Of a stretch of DNA of 64,000 nucleotides, positions 8,211-45,670 are shown piece after piece; position 1 is the stretch's first letter; every line of letters begins with the position of its first letter. A program made the translations under genes and the position numbers. The notes under the pieces are model-generated. The model did not search any database. It had not been told where the DNA came from and saw only the letters and a list, made by a program, of their open reading frames with translations. The DNA is from a virus. Its lineage: Duplodnaviria > Caudoviricetes. Location: IMG/VR virus record IMGVR_UViG_3300044675_005052; one strand, written 5' to 3'.

Positions 8211-8240
8211 AAAAAAGGTGTCATATTCGACACCTTTTTT
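8211..8240. terminator. Bidirectional intrinsic terminator between convergent genes
   Basis: AAAAAAGGTGTC-ATATTC-GACACCTTTTTT perfect 12-bp stem including A/T tracts on both sides. Confidence 0.9.
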
Positions 8241-8620
8241 TATTCTAATTTTAAACCATCTGATGAGACGATGTACCAATTATTTTCTAACATATAAAAT
8301 TCAACACAAGCTCCCCAATCAATAAATATTTCATCATAGTATTCATCAATTTTACCAGAACTTGGTCTAATGAATACTTTGGTTAATGCTTTAATAATAA
8401 TATGTTCTGTTGTATTAGAATCTAATATTATATTACAAGATTCAACATCTTTAATTACAAGTAGAATTTCCCCATTTGTTCTATAATCGGATTCGGTAAT
8501 AATTTTTTTCATTGGTATTAATTCAGTTTCTTCAGTAGTGTCTATCTCGATTAAAGTATTACCTAAAAATCGTCTATCGTTAATTGTTTTTCTTGTTAAT
8601 CTTTGAGTTACGGTATTCAT
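8240..8620 (-). CDS. Hypothetical protein (beta-rich, possibly virion-associated)
   Basis: 126-aa ORF tightly packed downstream of the neck gene; no catalytic motif recognised. Confidence 0.7.
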   Translation of the reverse strand: MNTVTQRLTRKTINDRRFLGNTLIEIDTTEETELIPMKKIITESDYRTNGEILLVIKDVESCNIILDSNTTEHIIIKALTKVFIRPSSGKIDEYYDEIFIDWGACVEFYMLENNWYIVSSDGLKLE

Positions 8621-9787: not shown

Positions 9788-11326
9788 TCAACTTAATGTA
9801 TAAATCAGGTCTTCTTTAGGGAAAATAAACTGACCGTCCATTATTTTTGAATGTTTATTGTCAAAGACCAAAACTTCTTTATTATTACGAGTAAAAATTA
9901 ACCAATCCGTTGAGTATCGTTTAACATTTCCTGTTCCTAAAATCATTATTGAATCTTTAATTTCTTTTTCACCGGTAAATGGTTTAATTTGTGCAGTTTT
10001 TTTAACACCATCAACAATTACTTCACAATCAACACCACCAATCATATCTTCTTTACTCCCAAGTTTACCGATAGCATTAACGTTATCATTACCAAATTGT
10101 TTTTTTAATATTTCAATAGTTTTATCTTCTCTTGATTGTCCCCAACTATTAGTTTGGGTTAAAACTTTCATAAGATTTTGGAATGTGGATGATTTTTGTG
10201 AGAATATTCTAAATTTGTATTCGTCTAAAACGTCAACAAGTTTTCGAACTTCACTTATTTGTTCAAATGGTTTTAGGCCAATCATTTTTATTTCAGGTAA
10301 TTGTTTGGATATTAAAACTTGATTAACATCATTAAGTAAAACACAAAAACAACTATAGTTTGTGTTTAGTTTATTTAAAACTGAACGACCTTGAGTTTCT
10401 AAATCATATACTCCGGCAACTTCACCTTCGGCATATTCGTTATTTCCATAATAGTTGTCGGGAAAAACTTCTTTTAACATTCTGTTAATTCCGTCTTTGA
10501 AGATTGTTTTAACTTTTGGATTGATGTTGAATACCATACGAATCGCCTCATTCATTTCTCTACTACATCTTTCAGATTTACCTTCAGAAATAACAGATTT
10601 TAATTCAGCACTTTCATTTAATTTATTATCCACTCTCATTGTGTATAATTTGTTAACAAATTCCCAATTTACACATTTCCAAAAGTTTTTAATGTAGTCA
10701 TCTTTTTTGTTTCTGTATTTTAGGTAGTAGGCGTGTTCCCATAAATCTAATCCTAAAATTGGGTATCCACCATCTTCAACTACATTCATTAATGGATTGT
10801 CTTGATTTGCGGTAGATACAATTTTTAAGGTGTTTCTTTTTGTTAGGACTAACCAAACCCATCCTGAACCGAATCTATCTTTTGCAATAGTTTCAAATTC
10901 TTTTTTGAAGTTGGCAAATGTATTAAAATCTTTTTTGATTTGTTTGATTACATCACCATTTGGAGTTTGAGTTTTTGGTGATAACATTTTCCAAAATAAT
11001 GCGTGGTTAAATGCTCCTCCTGCATTATTTCTTATAGTTTTATTAAATCTACTGATAGATTTAACTATTTCTTCAAGTTCTAAATCACCATAATCTTTGT
11101 TTTTAAGAGCGGCGTTTAGTTTATCTACGTAACCTTTATAATGTTTGTTATAATGGTAGTTCATTGTTTCAGCATCAATAAATTGCTTTAGTGCTGAATA
11201 GGAATAAGGTAATTTATCGATTCCTATCTTTTTCATCTCATTAAGAAAGAGTGTTTCATTTTCTTGTTTTTCAACATTTTGAATCTCTTCCGTAATGAGT
11301 TTGATTTTATTTTCAATATGTTTCAT
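9788..11326 (-). CDS. sodA: Fe/Mn superoxide dismutase (Mn-type signature) fused to a C-terminal PD-(D/E)xK-like domain
   Basis: LPYSYSAL, HYNKHYKGY, NNAGGAFNHALFW, GSGWVWL, TANQDNP, DLWEHAYY (all four metal ligands present); about 270 extra C-terminal aa with D..GGVD and AQIK. Confidence 0.9.
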   Translation of the reverse strand: MKHIENKIKLITEEIQNVEKQENETLFLNEMKKIGIDKLPYSYSALKQFIDAETMNYHYNKHYKGYVDKLNAALKNKDYGDLELEEIVKSISRFNKTIRNNAGGAFNHALFWKMLSPKTQTPNGDVIKQIKKDFNTFANFKKEFETIAKDRFGSGWVWLVLTKRNTLKIVSTANQDNPLMNVVEDGGYPILGLDLWEHAYYLKYRNKKDDYIKNFWKCVNWEFVNKLYTMRVDNKLNESAELKSVISEGKSERCSREMNEAIRMVFNINPKVKTIFKDGINRMLKEVFPDNYYGNNEYAEGEVAGVYDLETQGRSVLNKLNTNYSCFCVLLNDVNQVLISKQLPEIKMIGLKPFEQISEVRKLVDVLDEYKFRIFSQKSSTFQNLMKVLTQTNSWGQSREDKTIEILKKQFGNDNVNAIGKLGSKEDMIGGVDCEVIVDGVKKTAQIKPFTGEKEIKDSIMILGTGNVKRYSTDWLIFTRNNKEVLVFDNKHSKIMDGQFIFPKEDLIYTLS

Positions 11327-13162: not shown

Positions 13163-13191
13163 AATATAATAAATTATTTAATATTTATCAA
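13163..13191 (-). promoter_or_regulatory. Sigma70-like promoter for the SNF2 helicase
   Basis: TTGATA-N17-TATATT on the minus strand, about 20 nt upstream of the TTG start. Confidence 0.55.
13182..13189 (+). promoter_or_regulatory. Putative late promoter motif TATTTATC
   Basis: Just upstream of the gp14-like gene. Confidence 0.5.
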
Positions 13192-13192
13192 T

Positions 13193-13708
13193 ATGAGTAG
13201 AAATTTAGTACCAATTACAAGAATAGGTAAATTCTTCGGAGCGGAGGATTACAATTTAGACATCTCTATGGGGGAGGAATGGTTATATGGTGATATGAAC
13301 TTTACGTTAGTCCTGTATAAGGTAGACAGATTGAAAACCAAAACAGATGATGTTTATGGTGAGGTAATGACTGATGGTATAAAATATTTACCACCAATTG
13401 AGTTTAAAGCTTATGTTCAAATACTTCCACCTGAAACCAAATACTTGGGTAATTCAAAAATTACACAATCAGAACCTGGTAATATGAAGTTTGCGATTTA
13501 CGCCGCTCAACTTAACGATTTAGGGGTTCAAATTAATTATGGGGATTATATTGGTTATTATGAAACAGAAACAAAAGTTAGATATTACGTGGTTAGCGAT
13601 GACGGAAGAATTAATTCAGATAATAAACATACATATGCCGGTTATAAACCATTTTATAAATCATATGTAGCAACTCCGGTAACGGAAAACGAATTTAGAG
13701 GATTATAA
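13193..13708 (+). CDS. Head closure / neck protein, T4 gp14-like
   Basis: Size, position near gp13-like and gp15-like genes; DDVYGE...PIEFKAYV...GDYIGY pattern; late motif upstream. Confidence 0.55.
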   Translation: MSRNLVPITRIGKFFGAEDYNLDISMGEEWLYGDMNFTLVLYKVDRLKTKTDDVYGEVMTDGIKYLPPIEFKAYVQILPPETKYLGNSKITQSEPGNMKFAIYAAQLNDLGVQINYGDYIGYYETETKVRYYVVSDDGRINSDNKHTYAGYKPFYKSYVATPVTENEFRGL

Positions 13709-14061
13709 TGAAAGTAATAATAACAGAATCTAGATTACACAACATTGTAATTAAATTTCTAAACTCCGAATATGGAGATTTGAAATTGTATGATTATAAT
13801 AAATTTCTCATTTTATTAATAAAAGATGGTGAAATTATATTTGATTACAATACAAAAAGTAATGTGGTACATATTTCATATAAACACATTGGACATTATT
13901 TGGAAAGTCTTTTCGGTATGGGAAATAGACAGATTGGTGAGGTTATTAAGTTATGGGTGGAGGAGTATTATAATTTACCAGTAAAGGCGGTAACTACCAA
14001 TAACGATTTTCATGAAAATATTGTGTGGAGGGACATCTTAAAACAAATCAACAAAATATGA
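13708..14061 (+). CDS. Hypothetical protein with MKVIITE leader (paralog of next gene)
   Basis: TAATG overlap with previous gene; C-terminal WVEEYYNLPVKAV. Confidence 0.8.
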   Translation: MKVIITESRLHNIVIKFLNSEYGDLKLYDYNKFLILLIKDGEIIFDYNTKSNVVHISYKHIGHYLESLFGMGNRQIGEVIKLWVEEYYNLPVKAVTTNNDFHENIVWRDILKQINKI

Positions 14062-14471
14062 AACTAATAATAACAGAAAATAAACTATTCAATTCAATAT
14101 ACAATTATATTGATAAAACATTTAATTCAAGTAAAATGGATTGGGTTTATGGTATGGATGAAGATGAAGATGGATATCCTGATGTTGATAGAGAAAACGA
14201 AAACTTTTTAATGTTCTTTGAAGGTGATTATCAAGGTATTTATGATACTGATATTATTTTTTATTATTTTGATGTTGATTATTATAATACTGAACCATCA
14301 CATAAACCTTTTAGAGATAAAGCACCAATTTTAGAAGTTATTGGTAAGCACGCGGAACATTTAGATGACATGTTTGAAGGACATTGGGAAGAACCTATGA
14401 AAAAATGGTTTGAAGATAATTTTAATTTACCTGTTAAATCAGTATCCACATATTACGATTATGAAAATTAA
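14058..14471 (+). CDS. Hypothetical protein with MKLIITE leader
   Basis: ATG at 14058 overlaps the previous stop and is preferred to the track start at 14025; C-terminal WFEDNFNLPVKSV. Confidence 0.8.
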   Translation: MKLIITENKLFNSIYNYIDKTFNSSKMDWVYGMDEDEDGYPDVDRENENFLMFFEGDYQGIYDTDIIFYYFDVDYYNTEPSHKPFRDKAPILEVIGKHAEHLDDMFEGHWEEPMKKWFEDNFNLPVKSVSTYYDYEN

Positions 14472-14997
14472 AATTAATGAAAGTCAATATAGAAGACTAT
14501 TAGAAACCATTACCGACACAGAAGTGATTTGTGATGAGTGTGGTTGGTCTTGGGCTTTAGCCGATGGTGGAAACGACCCTTATATCTGTCACAAGTGTGG
14601 TCACGATAATGAGGAGAAAAAACATATAGGTGATAAAGTTATGGTTTATTATAACTTACACAAACACACCTTTTCAGTAACCTATGGTGGAAGAGTTATT
14701 ACTCATGCCGACTATGTTAAATTATCAGATGTTGAATTTAGAGTTAGACAAGGTGGAAGAGAAAAAGTAGTTAGAGAAAAAAGTAAAAATGTTCATTCAT
14801 TTGTAATTGGAACATTAATGGATTATTGTAAATATCCTTGTGAAAATTTACCAAGTGAACCAAATGATAACGTAGTTACCTATAATCCATATAAATACAA
14901 TTCTTATGTTATAAAAGACACCGAAGAACCAATATACCGTGCCGGTGAAGTTGAAATGATAAACTTAAGAAACAAAATATTTATAACAAAACAATAA
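14461..14997 (+). CDS. Hypothetical protein with MKIKINE leader, CxxC...CxxC zinc ribbon and a C-terminal domain of unknown function
   Basis: ATG at 14461 preferred to the track start at 14410; CDECGWSW...PYICHKCG. Confidence 0.8.
   Translation: MKIKINESQYRRLLETITDTEVICDECGWSWALADGGNDPYICHKCGHDNEEKKHIGDKVMVYYNLHKHTFSVTYGGRVITHADYVKLSDVEFRVRQGGREKVVREKSKNVHSFVIGTLMDYCKYPCENLPSEPNDNVVTYNPYKYNSYVIKDTEEPIYRAGEVEMINLRNKIFITKQ
14978..14985 (+). promoter_or_regulatory. Putative late promoter motif TATTTATA
   Basis: 13 nt upstream of the gp15-like gene. Confidence 0.55.
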
Positions 14998-14998
14998 C

Positions 14999-16036
14999 AT
15001 GCCATTACCAAATAAAATAAAGAAAACAATTCCGTTAACCTTTCCAAAAACTCTTTACCCAAGAAGAGAACAACTATTGGAAAAAATTAATAAAGACGGA
15101 ACTTATTTACCAAAATCAATTTTACACGCCGATTTGGATGGGGGTATGTTAAATTTTGTTCAAAATGAATTACAGACAATTGTGGATGGTCAAGTAATCC
15201 CAATGGTTGATATCATAATTACATCTCAGAACTGGTCACAATTTACCGAAACTTGGAATTTTCAAGATTTGGACTCAAACGTTTCCCCTCCGTTTATTAC
15301 TGTTGTAAGAAACCCGGAAGTTAAATTCGGAACAAATCCTGCAACAATTTATAATATACCAAATAGAAAACAATATTTTTATGCTCAAGTACCAACTTGG
15401 GATGGAAATAGAAATGGTATGGATATATATAAAATACCTCAACCTGTTCCTGTTGATATTACATATAGTGTTAAAATAATTTGTAATAGAATGAGAGAAT
15501 TAAACGCTTTAAATAAAAACATTCTTGAAATGTTTGCATCTCGTCAAGCTTATACAACTATCAAAGGTCATTATATTCCAATCATTATGAATAACATTAC
15601 TGATGAGTCAGTTATGAATATTGATAAAAGAAAATATTATATTCAAAGTTATGATTTTACAATGTTAGGATTCTTAATTGATGAAAACGAATTTGAAGTT
15701 GCACCGGCAGTTTCAAGAGTTTTAACCGTTATTGAATTTGAAAAAGAATCGTTCACTCGTGGTCGAAGAAAAAATATTACAGACGAATCTACTATTACTA
15801 ATTTTTTATTTGTTGCTGGGAACAATATTTTATCACAAATTTTTGATTATACCGTTGATTTAAATTTAGGTGATACAATCAACATTGAGTCGTATGATGT
15901 GTATCTAAATAATCTATATTATGGGTCTGATTTACTTCAAATTCAGATAAACACCAACGATGTTTTAAAAATAATTGTGGTTAAAAATGATGACTCACAA
16001 GAAGGTATTATTCAGTTAGATAATCAAATACTTTAG
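14999..16036 (+). CDS. Tail completion / sheath terminator, T4 gp15-like
   Basis: PQPVPVDITYSVKII...LNKNILEMF pattern; lies just upstream of the sheath; late motif at 14978. Confidence 0.65.
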   Translation: MPLPNKIKKTIPLTFPKTLYPRREQLLEKINKDGTYLPKSILHADLDGGMLNFVQNELQTIVDGQVIPMVDIIITSQNWSQFTETWNFQDLDSNVSPPFITVVRNPEVKFGTNPATIYNIPNRKQYFYAQVPTWDGNRNGMDIYKIPQPVPVDITYSVKIICNRMRELNALNKNILEMFASRQAYTTIKGHYIPIIMNNITDESVMNIDKRKYYIQSYDFTMLGFLIDENEFEVAPAVSRVLTVIEFEKESFTRGRRKNITDESTITNFLFVAGNNILSQIFDYTVDLNLGDTINIESYDVYLNNLYYGSDLLQIQINTNDVLKIIVVKNDDSQEGIIQLDNQIL

Positions 16037-16197
16037 TTCTCACCATAAATATCCTTCTTTTCCTTACATTGGTCTACAATCATTCTTTCTAAAAAACGAT
16101 ACATTTTTATCCCCCTCTTTTCACAATAGGTCTTTAGGATGTTGTGAACCTCGATTGATATCTTTAGGTTCTTAATTTTTTTTTCGTTATCTGCCAT
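16033..16197 (-). CDS. Small ribbon-helix-helix DNA-binding protein (54 aa; not in ORF track)
   Basis: Translated by hand: MADNEKKIKNLKISIEVHNILKTYCEKRGIKMYRFLERMIVDQCKEKKDIYGEN; alternating beta strand followed by helix-G-helix. Confidence 0.75.
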   Translation of the reverse strand: MADNEKKIKNLKISIEVHNILKTYCEKRGIKMYRFLERMIVDQCKEKKDIYGEN

Positions 16198-36664: not shown

Positions 36665-37345
36665 ATGAAAAAAATAGACAATCAAATTTTAGAGGAAATT
36701 GCTAGATATAATTCTATCAATCAATATATTGTTGAACAAGATGCTACGTTACCTCCTCCACCTGGTGAAGTTGACCCAAACGCAGCTCCGGCTCCTGATG
36801 CAGGATTAGCTCCTGAAACGGCTCCACCGGCAGACCCAAATGCTGCGATTGCCCCACCGGCTCCGGCAGGACCTCAACCGGTTGATGTTGCGACTGACCC
36901 GGATGTGGAAAAAATTGGTGATGATGAAAAATCAGAATCAAAAACGGAAGAAATGGATATTACTGATTTAGTAAAATCACAGAAAAAAGTTGAAGAGAAA
37001 CAAGAAGAGTATTTTAATAACTTATTCCAACATTTAGATAATTTAGAAACTAAATTAGGTGAAATGGATGGTATCATGACTAAATTAAATGATTTAGAAG
37101 CTAAAGTTGAAAAATACAGAGAAAAAACTCCTCAAGAAAAATTAGAATTAAGAACATTAGATTCAGGTCCTTTCAATCAAAAATTAAGTCAATTCTTTGA
37201 TGATAAAGAGGAGGATATGGAAAAAACAGGAAAAAATGAATATGTTTTAACTCAAGACGAAGTTGAAGATTATTCACCAAATGAGATTAAAAAAACCTTC
37301 AGAAATTTTGAAGACGAAGTAAATCCATTTAGACAAGTAAGATAA
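36665..37345 (+). CDS. Hypothetical protein with Pro/Ala-rich linker and coiled coil (possible head/scaffold-associated protein)
   Basis: PPPPGEVDPNAAPAPD tract then heptad-like LDNLETKLGEMDGIMTKLNDLEAKV. Confidence 0.7.
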   Translation: MKKIDNQILEEIARYNSINQYIVEQDATLPPPPGEVDPNAAPAPDAGLAPETAPPADPNAAIAPPAPAGPQPVDVATDPDVEKIGDDEKSESKTEEMDITDLVKSQKKVEEKQEEYFNNLFQHLDNLETKLGEMDGIMTKLNDLEAKVEKYREKTPQEKLELRTLDSGPFNQKLSQFFDDKEEDMEKTGKNEYVLTQDEVEDYSPNEIKKTFRNFEDEVNPFRQVR

Positions 37346-43255: not shown

Positions 43256-45670
43256 ATGATGTCATTAAAGATAAGAAAAAGAGGGGGAGACGAAGTTTCG
43301 TTCAACCCCCAAAAAATTTATAATAGAGTTAAACGAGCGGCAAGAGGATTAAACGTAAATGCTGATGAGGTATTCATTAAGGTGATTACTTCAGTTCCAA
43401 CAGAGGGTGTTATTACAACCAAAGAGTTGGATAAGTTAGTTTATGAGATTGCTGCGGCATATACCGGAAGTCATCACGACTACTCAAGATTAGCATCATC
43501 TGTTGCTATTTCTGCGTATCATAAAGAAACTGATGAAAGTTTCTGTAACACAATGCACACATTACACGTTGATGGTATTATTAACGATAAGTTAATGGAA
43601 ACTATTGAACAATATGGTCCTGAAAATATTGATTCTGTAATTAATCACGAGAATGATTACAATTTTGATTATTTTGCTTGGAAATCATTACAAGAAATGT
43701 ATTTGTTAAAAAATCCTGAAGGTAGAGTAATTGAAAGACCTCAACATATGTATATGAGAGTTGCTTTATGGGTTACTAAATCATTTGAACAAGCGGTTGA
43801 ATATTATCAATCATTATCAAATCAAGTTATATCTCCTGCGACACCGATTATGATTAACGCGGGAACTAAAACACCTCAACTAGCATCTTGTGTATTGAAA
43901 TACAATCACGGGGACTCAAGAGAAGGGTTATTGCAAACATTCAACGATATTTCAACGTATTCGTCAGATGCTGCAGGTATTGGATTATGTATGTCTAACA
44001 TTCGTAGTAAAGAAAGTCGTATTAACTCATCAGGTGGATTTGCGGGTGGTTTATTAAAATACTTAAAGATTGTAAATGAAGGATTAAGATTCTTTAATCA
44101 ACAAGGTAGAAGACCGGGTAGTGCAGCTATCTACATTGAACCTTGGCATAAAGACATCATTGATTTACTTGAAATCAAAAAGAATACGGGAGCTGAAGAA
44201 TTAAGAGCAAAAGATTTATTTACCTCAATATGGTTACCGGACAACTTTATGGAGGCGGTTAAGAATAATTCTGATTGGTATTTGTTCTGTCCTAACGACA
44301 TTAAAAAGGCGGGTATCAAACCATTACAGGAAACTTATGGTGTTGAGTATGAGGCAAACTACAACAAAGCGGTTGAACTTGGTCTTGGTAAAAAAGTGAA
44401 AGCACAAACAATTTGGAATAAAATTATTGAATCTCAAGTTGAAACCGGAGTTCCTTACTTATGTTCTAAAGATAGTGCTAACAGAAAAACTAACCATCAA
44501 AACATTGGGGTGATTAAACAATCTAATCTATGTAATGAGATTTACCAATATACCGATGAAAATACTACGGCAATCTGTACGTTATCATCTATGGTATTGA
44601 AAAACTTTATCGTTAAAGGGGAGTTTGATTTCAAATTACTTTATAGTGAAGTTAGAAAGGTTGTTAGAGCACTTAACAAAGTTGTTGACATTAATAGTTA
44701 TTCAACTGAACAAGGTAGAAAAGGTGGTTTAGAACAAAGAGCAATTGCGATTGGAACTCAAGGTCTTGCTGACGTATTTTTCTTAATGGATTATATCTTC
44801 ACATCTGAAGAGGCGAAACAATTAAACAAAGAAATTTTTGAAACAATCTACTTTGCGGCAATCACCGAAAGTATGGAATTATGTAAATCAGGTGAATACA
44901 AACCATACGAATTCTTTAACGGTTCGCCAATGTCAAAAGGTATATTCCAATTCGATATGTGGGGGTTAGATTATGAAGGTTTAGGAAGAATGTGGGATTG
45001 GGACTCACTTAAATTAGAAGTATCTAATCACGGAGTTTGTAACTCATTATTCACGGCTCAGATGCCAGTTGCATCTTCAGCTAAGATTACAGGTTCATTT
45101 GAAATGACAGAACCGGCTCACTCGGCATTATTTAATCGTCGTGTAGTTGGAGGAGAAATTTTAATTGTTAACAAATACTTAATTAGTGATTTTGAGAAAA
45201 TTGGTATTTGGTCTGAAGATTTGAAAAATGAAATCATTATGAATGAAGGGTCAATTCAAAATATTAACTTTAATAATTATCTTGACCAAGAAGATAAAAA
45301 TTATAACAAGAAAGTTAAAAGAATTGAACATTTAATTCCAAAATACAAAACAATTTGGGAAATATCTCAAAGAGAACTTATTGATATGGCGGCAGACAGA
45401 GCACCATTCATTGACCAATCACAATCAATGAATATCTATATGTCTAATCCAACACTATCAAAGATTTCATCATCACACTTCCATTCTTGGGGTAAAGGAT
45501 TGAAAACTCTTTGTTATTATGTTAGAACTAAAGCGATATCAACCGGAGCTAAACACTTGGCGGTGGATATCTCAAAAGTTGGTCAATTAAAACCAATTGA
45601 GAAACCAACAGTTGAACTAACTTCAAAACCAACAGACACAGAATTTGAGTGTTTTGGATGTGGTTCTTAA
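43256..45670 (+). CDS. nrdA: Class Ia ribonucleotide reductase alpha subunit with ATP cone
   Basis: N-terminal ATP cone; ERPQHMYMRVA, QLASC, SNLCNEI, QMPVASS, LCYYVRT, C-terminal CFGCGS. Confidence 0.97.
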   Translation: MMSLKIRKRGGDEVSFNPQKIYNRVKRAARGLNVNADEVFIKVITSVPTEGVITTKELDKLVYEIAAAYTGSHHDYSRLASSVAISAYHKETDESFCNTMHTLHVDGIINDKLMETIEQYGPENIDSVINHENDYNFDYFAWKSLQEMYLLKNPEGRVIERPQHMYMRVALWVTKSFEQAVEYYQSLSNQVISPATPIMINAGTKTPQLASCVLKYNHGDSREGLLQTFNDISTYSSDAAGIGLCMSNIRSKESRINSSGGFAGGLLKYLKIVNEGLRFFNQQGRRPGSAAIYIEPWHKDIIDLLEIKKNTGAEELRAKDLFTSIWLPDNFMEAVKNNSDWYLFCPNDIKKAGIKPLQETYGVEYEANYNKAVELGLGKKVKAQTIWNKIIESQVETGVPYLCSKDSANRKTNHQNIGVIKQSNLCNEIYQYTDENTTAICTLSSMVLKNFIVKGEFDFKLLYSEVRKVVRALNKVVDINSYSTEQGRKGGLEQRAIAIGTQGLADVFFLMDYIFTSEEAKQLNKEIFETIYFAAITESMELCKSGEYKPYEFFNGSPMSKGIFQFDMWGLDYEGLGRMWDWDSLKLEVSNHGVCNSLFTAQMPVASSAKITGSFEMTEPAHSALFNRRVVGGEILIVNKYLISDFEKIGIWSEDLKNEIIMNEGSIQNINFNNYLDQEDKNYNKKVKRIEHLIPKYKTIWEISQRELIDMAADRAPFIDQSQSMNIYMSNPTLSKISSSHFHSWGKGLKTLCYYVRTKAISTGAKHLAVDISKVGQLKPIEKPTVELTSKPTDTEFECFGCGS

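Follow-up and report, generated by a model that had tools for sequence, protein, structure and literature searches.

A shared N-terminal peptide on small proteins of T4-related lake jumbo phages: a candidate capsid-targeting and cleavage signal

Why should three consecutive phage genes, one of which differs entirely in body from the other two, encode proteins that begin with nearly the same residues? The question is raised by a stretch of viral DNA of 64,000 nucleotides (nt), in the following referred to as the window, which belongs to a 98.7-kb virus record of IMG/VR (IMGVR_UViG_3300044675_005052; CheckV completeness 34%). Its genes at 13708, 14058 and 14461 encode the proteins p1, p2 and p3, which start with MKVIITES, MKLIITEN and MKIKINES, exactly as had been stated in the original prediction, where this start was taken for a leader that directs cargo proteins into the phage head and is then cleaved off. 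The ATG starts of all three genes are backed by orthologues with matching lengths. The shared start, here termed the tag, is a portable, body-independent N-terminal module that is selected at the protein level, and it is carried by at least 20 small, mostly orphan proteins per genome in T4-related jumbo phages of lake Bacteroidota with genomes of ~300 kb. A capsid-targeting and cleavage signal like that of T4 appears to be the best single explanation, held here with somewhat less than even confidence. The features on which the analysis is centred are the following (lengths in amino acids, aa).

13708 to 14061, plus strand: p1, 117 aa, start MKVIITES, member of the p1/p2 family (open reading frame, BLASTP)
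13708 to 13752, plus strand: tag-coding part of p1, residues 1-15 (information profile over 84 body clusters)
14058 to 14471, plus strand: p2, 137 aa, start MKLIITEN, acidic alpha/beta protein (open reading frame, homologues, AlphaFold2)
14461 to 14997, plus strand: p3, 178 aa, start MKIKINES, consisting of the tag, an optional zinc ribbon and an L5 gp82-like domain (Pfam, PHROG)
14461 to 14505, plus strand: tag of p3 (MKIKINESQYRRLLE); one hydrophobic-x-Glu motif ends at Glu7, another at Glu15 (orthologue alignment)
about 14530 to 14598, plus strand: CxxC...CxxC zinc ribbon of p3
about 14626 to 14964, plus strand: L5 gp82-like domain of p3 (PF25735)

The tag and the proteins that carry it

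In a complete 309-kb relative (G001), 27 proteins match a loose pattern of the tag, ~23 of which are true tag starts, whereas 20 shuffles of the sequence gave 0-2; a complete 322-kb relative (G002) has 26 matches to the tag pattern, again compared to 0-2 in shuffled sequence. A genome-wide search of N-termini, which had been suggested as a check, thus places the tag far beyond chance. When the proteins of G001 were clustered by N-terminal similarity, the tag formed by far the largest cluster, with 24 genes. A degenerate DNA pattern for MKYIITE was found in at least 120 IMG/VR stretches, often several times per locus, and these loci encode at least 282 unique tagged proteins, the median length being ~115 aa. 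Among the matches listed, BLAST groups the 282 proteins into 85 body clusters. When the 17 largest were compared as profiles by hhalign, only few were linked, and at least 8-10 have no profile relationship to each other. The tagged bodies are mostly orphans. In larger members of the clade, the tag also resides on a peptidoglycan-binding-domain protein and on a lysozyme:

L099:4566-5441, minus strand: T4-lysozyme-type enzyme with LysM, N-terminus MKIIITENQFKSLLTE

The earlier notion of a modular leader on diverse enzymes is partly supported, by the independence of tag and body and by the lysozyme-LysM carrier of the clade; it is weakened by the bodies within the window, which are ORFans rather than a recognisable set of enzymes, two of the three being paralogues.

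Taking one representative for each of 84 body clusters, the consensus of the tag reads M-K-(Y/I/V)-(I/L)-I-T-E-(S/N)-Q-(L/Y/F)-x-x-(L/I)-x-(E). Conservation across clusters covers positions 1-7, Gln9 (80%), position 10 (Leu, Tyr or Phe) and Leu/Ile13 (77%) and drops to background by about residue 15; Gln9 and Leu/Ile13 lie outside the constraints of the search pattern. A second hydrophobic-x-Glu at residues 13-15, at the very end of the conserved part, occurs in 29% of the body clusters compared to a background of 2.4%; p3 has it, p1 and p2 do not. The codons of the tag make use of every synonymous alternative, and AGY as well as TCN codons are used for the serine. Such free synonymous variation indicates selection on the peptide rather than on DNA or RNA, and a nucleotide-level signal as the source of the shared start is ruled out by this codon evidence. 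An internal 'MKKIITES' in a 126-aa gene of the window (8240-8620) was rejected as a false positive, as both the methionine and the motif are missing in the orthologues.

The original prediction had described the three bodies as unrelated or only weakly related. This is true of p3, the body of which is unrelated to p1 and p2; the latter two are full-length paralogues (BLASTP E 9e-9) with a common C-terminal W.E..NLPVK.V.T motif. For p2, 183 homologues were identified, and the family profile matches 601 cluster representatives at E <= 0.001. The p1/p2 family is found in viruses only, and its ESM Atlas matches are exclusively viral hypothetical clusters (template-modelling score 0.69-0.80). Ile5 and Glu7 are invariant across 47 p1/p2 sequences, with Thr, Ser, Asn or Lys at residue 6. 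Structural modeling of p2 with AlphaFold2, based on an alignment of these 47 sequences (predicted local distance difference score, pLDDT, 86.5; predicted template-modelling score 0.80), left residues 1-6 unstructured and placed a helix spanning residues 7-21 packed into the fold. Comparison of the p2 fold to the PDB gave no match above chance by Foldseek and a best Z of 3.7 by VIA-align wide. In multi-domain relatives, an internal p2-like domain retains I(T/N/S)ES without the MKY, and the full tag is present only at the protein's own N-terminus.

The p1/p2 locus varies in copy number across close and distant relatives, with one copy, two copies or a replacement; the relative L001 has a single paralogue, and p1 is absent or replaced in contigs of relatives. 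In one such contig, the sequence joins 13714 directly to 14065, within 14 nt of common tag-coding sequence, and another has 313 different letters in place of p1, from 13728 to 14043. The p1 slot behaves as a cassette with tag-coding DNA at its borders. At the syntenic locus of G002 (161392-162601), two p2-like paralogues are identical in their first 17 residues, and the second is preceded by the same 20 nt as p3, which suggests a recent duplication or gene conversion.

The body of p3 belongs to PF25735 (Phage_L5_gp82; residues 57-169, E 5e-30, 104.3 bits at a cut-off of 27) and also matches phrog_586 (E 1.6e-30). M1, K2, E7, Q9 and E15 are invariant among 21 orthologues of p3, in which Glu7 and Glu15 each end a hydrophobic-x-Glu motif; orthologues of 144-148 aa lack the zinc ribbon. 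The L5 gp82-like domain occurs in 941 records of cultivated phages, where the alignment always starts from residue 62 on and these homologues hence lack the tag; in Bacillus phage phiNIT1, the homologue is a 125-aa gene amid the small genes of the terminal redundancy. The AlphaFold2 model of p3 is weaker (pLDDT 67), with a coil at residues 1-6 and a poorly anchored helix 7-20 of low confidence. Residues 1-6 of the tag are thus outside the predicted fold in the models of both p2 and p3.

Candidate promoter element, clade and prohead protease

Five closely packed genes on the plus strand (13193-16036), among them the three tagged ones, are preceded by a TATTTAT element.

13182 to 13188, plus strand: TATTTAT, 11 nt upstream of the first ATG of the operon, candidate late promoter

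In G001, TATTTAT is positioned at fixed spacings ahead of start codons, at -11/-12 in 41 genes and at -21 to -23 in 25 genes. It heads the operons of 18 out of 22 tagged genes compared to 111 out of 427 others (Fisher p 2e-7), and also several structural genes but none of eight replication genes. TATTTAT is probably the late promoter. Its short distance to the start codon would result in nearly leaderless mRNAs. Further copies of the element occur elsewhere in the window, at 24151, 48111 and other positions.

A gene for ribosomal protein bS21 was identified beside that of the prohead protease, on the opposite strand, in three relatives:

G002, 243337 to 243495: bS21
G006, 66251 to 66406: bS21
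G007, 108720 to 108872: bS21

Neither G001 nor the incomplete record of the window was found to contain it. From this arrangement, the clade of the window is probably that of the freshwater Bacteroidetes 'bS21 phages' of Chen et al. (2022). The window itself recurs almost unchanged in many lake metagenomes. Like the phages studied here, the bS21 phages have lake genomes of about 290-330 kb, and their structural genes were reported to be expressed late (PMC9723584). N-terminal tags are not mentioned in that paper (PMC9723584).

Ile5-x-Glu7, which all tagged proteins contain, fits the (I/L)-x-E form of the site cut by the T4 prohead protease gp21, and a search for a gp21-like protease elsewhere in the genome had been suggested as a check. 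No prohead protease of family Peptidase_S77 was found in the 34%-complete record to which the window belongs; in both G001 (238 aa, 200700-201416) and G002, a T4-type S77 protease is part of a head module resembling that of T4, and among 30 further tag-bearing records it is present in 20 out of 20 with a completeness of 50% or more, including five out of five with 90% or more. Over its first 60 residues, the capsid protein is identical between G001 and G002; this stretch ends in LINE|A, after which the sequences vary. This position closely precedes the block aligned to residues 93-126 of T4 gp23, the mature form of which begins at residue 66, and this agreement with the gp23 maturation cut makes I-N-E|A a likely maturation site. 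The K-I-N-E|S of p3 parallels it. The proteases of the clade retain GIL(I/V)E near their own N-terminus; T4 gp21 carries LIE-9 at a similar place (PMC9026906). A predicted complex of the G001 protease and p2 scored 0.00, which counts neither for nor against binding.

Proposed capsid targeting and competing explanations

In T4, a capsid-targeting sequence (CTS) is present on the internal proteins IPI, IPII and IPIII and on Alt and is removed by gp21 (Mullaney and Black 1996; reviews PMC9026906, PMC3012670). The propeptides of the T4 internal proteins comprise 10-19 residues, and in the 10-residue CTS targeting depends on positions 4 and 7, and gp21 processing on positions 8 and 10 (I-x-E) (PMC9026906). 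Similarly, the tag is a short N-terminal peptide on otherwise unrelated, mostly small and fast-changing proteins, confined to residues 1-15 across the 84 body clusters as is typical of a T4-type CTS; it contains (I/L)-x-E, its genes are located in variable regions in cassette-like slots, and the same genomes encode a T4-type S77 protease. In contrast to T4, which has about four carriers, each genome has 20-26, i.e. about fivefold more, the first glutamate is located at residue 7 with conservation running past it, the tag lacks sequence similarity to MKTYQEFIAE, basic proteins are not overrepresented among the bodies, and the host belongs to another phylum. The phiKZ-like giant phages provide a further parallel, as many of their head proteins are cut after glutamate by a gp21-related protease. 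In phiKZ, 201phi2-1 and SPN3US, propeptides of ejection or inner-body proteins are cut at S/A/G-x-E or A-x-E, and the SPN3US paralogues gp53 and gp54 have an identical 15-residue N-terminus with protease motifs (PMC5694885). However, these propeptides mostly exceed 100 residues, are not one common tag, have a small P3 residue rather than Ile or Leu, and stem from another lineage.

For the tagged proteins we infer late timing, packaging, cleavage and injection. They would be produced late, alongside virion parts, and the tag would bind to the prohead core so that the protein becomes enclosed as the head assembles. The S77 protease would cut after Glu7 and, where present, after the second hydrophobic-x-Glu at residues 13-15, and the freed body would stay inside the head and be delivered with the DNA. 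In its most extended form, the 15-residue tag would load more than 20 proteins (5-6% of the genes), including lysozymes and perhaps a superoxide dismutase (SOD), for co-injection, and the DNA encoding it would double as a recombination handle for the swapping of cassettes; this full scenario is possible, although on balance doubtful.

Several observations weigh against capsid targeting. The tag and T4 MKTYQEFIAE have in common only M-K and a terminal hydrophobic-x-Glu. A cut after Glu7 removes merely seven residues, yet conservation reaches residues 13-15, and the second site exists in a minority of clusters (29%, see above). Glu7 is lost in some members of the p1/p2 family, such as those starting with MKYVLPQG and MKYIITDS. 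The internal proteins of T4 are basic, whereas the tagged proteins have a median isoelectric point of 6.1 (proteome 5.8), and half of them are acidic. The co-occurrence of protease and tag may merely reflect a single clade. The largest body cluster is the p1/p2 family, to which, among the matches listed, 119 of the 282 tagged proteins (~40%) belong, and in this family the helix 7-21 is part of the fold. Hydrophobic staple and capping box together form a textbook motif of helix starts. I-T-E-S-Q-L fits such a start, with a staple of Ile (N') and Leu (N4), Thr as the cap and Gln at N3, and in the AlphaFold2 model of p2 the first helix begins at Glu7. Together with the internal domains that keep I(T/N/S)ES, this points to a possible structural reason for Ile5 and Glu7.

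Among the alternatives, the one that fares best is an uncleaved docking or assembly element, a strand plus helix by which the small proteins join one partner, such as a site at the virion surface or neck, a chaperone or a complex, and never enter the head. The portability of the tag and the late-type promoter fit such a role equally well; residues 2-6 (K-Y-I-I-T) are strongly strand-prone and free of the fold, the charge of the tagged proteins is ordinary, and the trio of the window is located between putative neck and tail-terminator genes. Docking provides no special reason, though, for an invariant glutamate after a variable residue or for a second hydrophobic-x-Glu where conservation ends, and we regard it as a serious but unlikely explanation.

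Alternatively, the tag might not be an address at all but the inherited N-terminus (short strand and helix N-cap) of a fast-evolving paralogue superfamily, spread by duplication and fusion. That p1 and p2 are paralogues speaks for this, as do the single BLAST cluster comprising 119 of the 282 proteins, to which hhalign adds few clusters, the packing of helix 7-21 in the p2 fold, the retention of ITES in internal domain copies, and the position of tag-coding DNA at the boundaries of deletions and replacements in relatives. Common descent is difficult to reconcile with the tagging of independent known folds (lysozyme, L5 gp82-like) whose homologues elsewhere are untagged, with the fact that, of the 17 largest clusters, at least 8-10 lack any profile relationship to each other, and with residues 1-6 being outside the fold and still the best conserved. 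On these grounds we consider it improbable.

A Met-basic-hydrophobic start is also known as an N-terminal degradation signal, N-motif 2 of ClpX. Such a signal, or else an optimum for starting translation on late mRNAs with almost no leader, possibly involving the phage's bS21, in a Bacteroidota host with few Shine-Dalgarno sequences, is highly unlikely to account for the tag: TATTTAT precedes the ATG of many tagged genes by just 11-12 nt, the clade encodes bS21 (PMC9723584) and some codon skew is seen at Tyr3 and Ile5, but all synonymous codons are in use, with Ser from two codon families, the tag is missing from most of the other genes that have TATTTAT at -11, and the conserved Ile5, Glu7, Gln9 and Leu13 are predicted by neither signal.

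If the tag indeed loads proteins into the head, abundant lake phages would deliver, together with their DNA, a large and fast-changing set of ready-made proteins far exceeding the handful of T4. The tag would then serve as a sequence rule by which the injected arsenal can be listed from the genome alone, and it might be used as a handle to package foreign proteins in phages of Bacteroidota. If not, it would still be a linear motif under strong selection, carried by about 5% of the genes in a common group of phages.

The operon's neighbourhood and other leaders

The tagged genes are flanked within the operon by two genes that are syntenic in relatives.

13193 to 13708, plus strand: 171-aa gene, probable T4 gp14-like neck protein, opening the operon (ESM Atlas lead and synteny)
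14999 to 16036, plus strand: 345-aa gene, possible T4 gp15-like tail-sheath stabiliser, closing the operon (weak ESM Atlas lead and synteny)

In an ESM Atlas feature search, which provides leads only, the 171-aa protein scored 0.97 to clusters with PF11649 (T4_neck-protein) or PF24214; the 345-aa protein gave a weak lead, scoring 0.85 to clusters in which 12-15% of the members carry PF16724. A sequence search of both against PDB chains returned no useful match. A gp13-like neck gene is located upstream of the operon, and the tail sheath and tube genes follow downstream; together with the putative gp14-like and gp15-like flanks, this places the tagged trio inside a probable neck/tail-completion operon. 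The genes are tightly joined, having one base in common at 13708, an ATGA at 14058 and an 11-nt overlap at 14461. Contigs from RNA libraries of relatives span p2, p3 and their neighbours; as contigs are no proof of transcription, of its timing or of one joint transcript, they were not used as evidence. The sheath resembles those of T4-like phages of Microcystis and Flavobacterium and of cyanophages, but only distantly, and searches of cultivated phages by Megablast and tblastn revealed neither a close relative nor a homologue of p1.

Similar starts had also been claimed for three further proteins of the window.

11222 to 11326, minus strand: leader of the SOD fusion, 35 residues (MKHIENKIKLITEE...FLNE|M), a tag-like variant
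19710 to 20531, plus strand: 273-aa protein between sheath and tube, without an MKxIITE tag
36665 to 37345, plus strand: 226-aa protein with a different type of leader (ILEE..., YIVE|Q)

Among the 76 open reading frames of the record, 17 have a loose (I/L)xE somewhere in their 15 N-terminal residues, compared to 11 expected from internal windows, and ribonucleotide reductase beta is among the proteins that start in this way, so that in the window the loose motif is near chance. The 273-aa and 226-aa proteins bear a weaker and different resemblance to the tag; their (I/L)xE motifs are nevertheless kept in orthologues from G001 and G002. The SOD fusion indeed contains an Fe/Mn SOD domain (residues 36-226), and the K-I-x-L-I-T-E-E of its leader is retained in G002, while the orthologue in G001 lacks the first 250 residues. 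The 273-aa protein, whose N-terminal L-x-E-G is retained in orthologues, had been called a HAD phosphatase; neither HAD nor any other Pfam family was found above threshold, leaving this annotation without Pfam support. In the 226-aa protein, I-x-E (residues 8-10) and YI(V/T/M)E|Q (residues 21-24) are retained in G001 and G002, and its leader resembles the '...YLxEQ' leaders on three G001 genes beside the capsid gene.

Shared leaders of G001 (192136-196188 and 188235-188579) comprise 'EEKNRILNLHESATK..YLxEQ' on these three genes, which directly adjoin the capsid gene, as well as 'M.KIVKLTESDLNRIVKKV' and 'MK.L.NE.I.NMKYL.GYK.G.V.SEQ'; all of them end in hydrophobic-x-E-(S/Q). In another relative (L136:1321-2397, plus strand), a polyphosphate kinase 2 follows a 114-residue leader of the 'MRNLVTE..KIMGL.E' type.

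The portal gene of G001 (202751-205567; L062:12751-15567, minus strand) encodes 938 aa compared to 621 aa in G002. The extra segment, which starts with '...EYCIAGDTKIATPDG' and matches HNH endonuclease families at residues 194-282, looks like an intein with a homing endonuclease inside the portal protein. Finally, one of many small genes of a ~50-aa 'MGRK...' or ribbon-helix-helix-like sort is located on the opposite strand between the gp15-like and sheath genes of the window (16033-16197, minus strand), and further genes of this sort are found in G001 at 45640, 68198, 115179, 148544 and 152023, each directly after a TATTTAT at -11.

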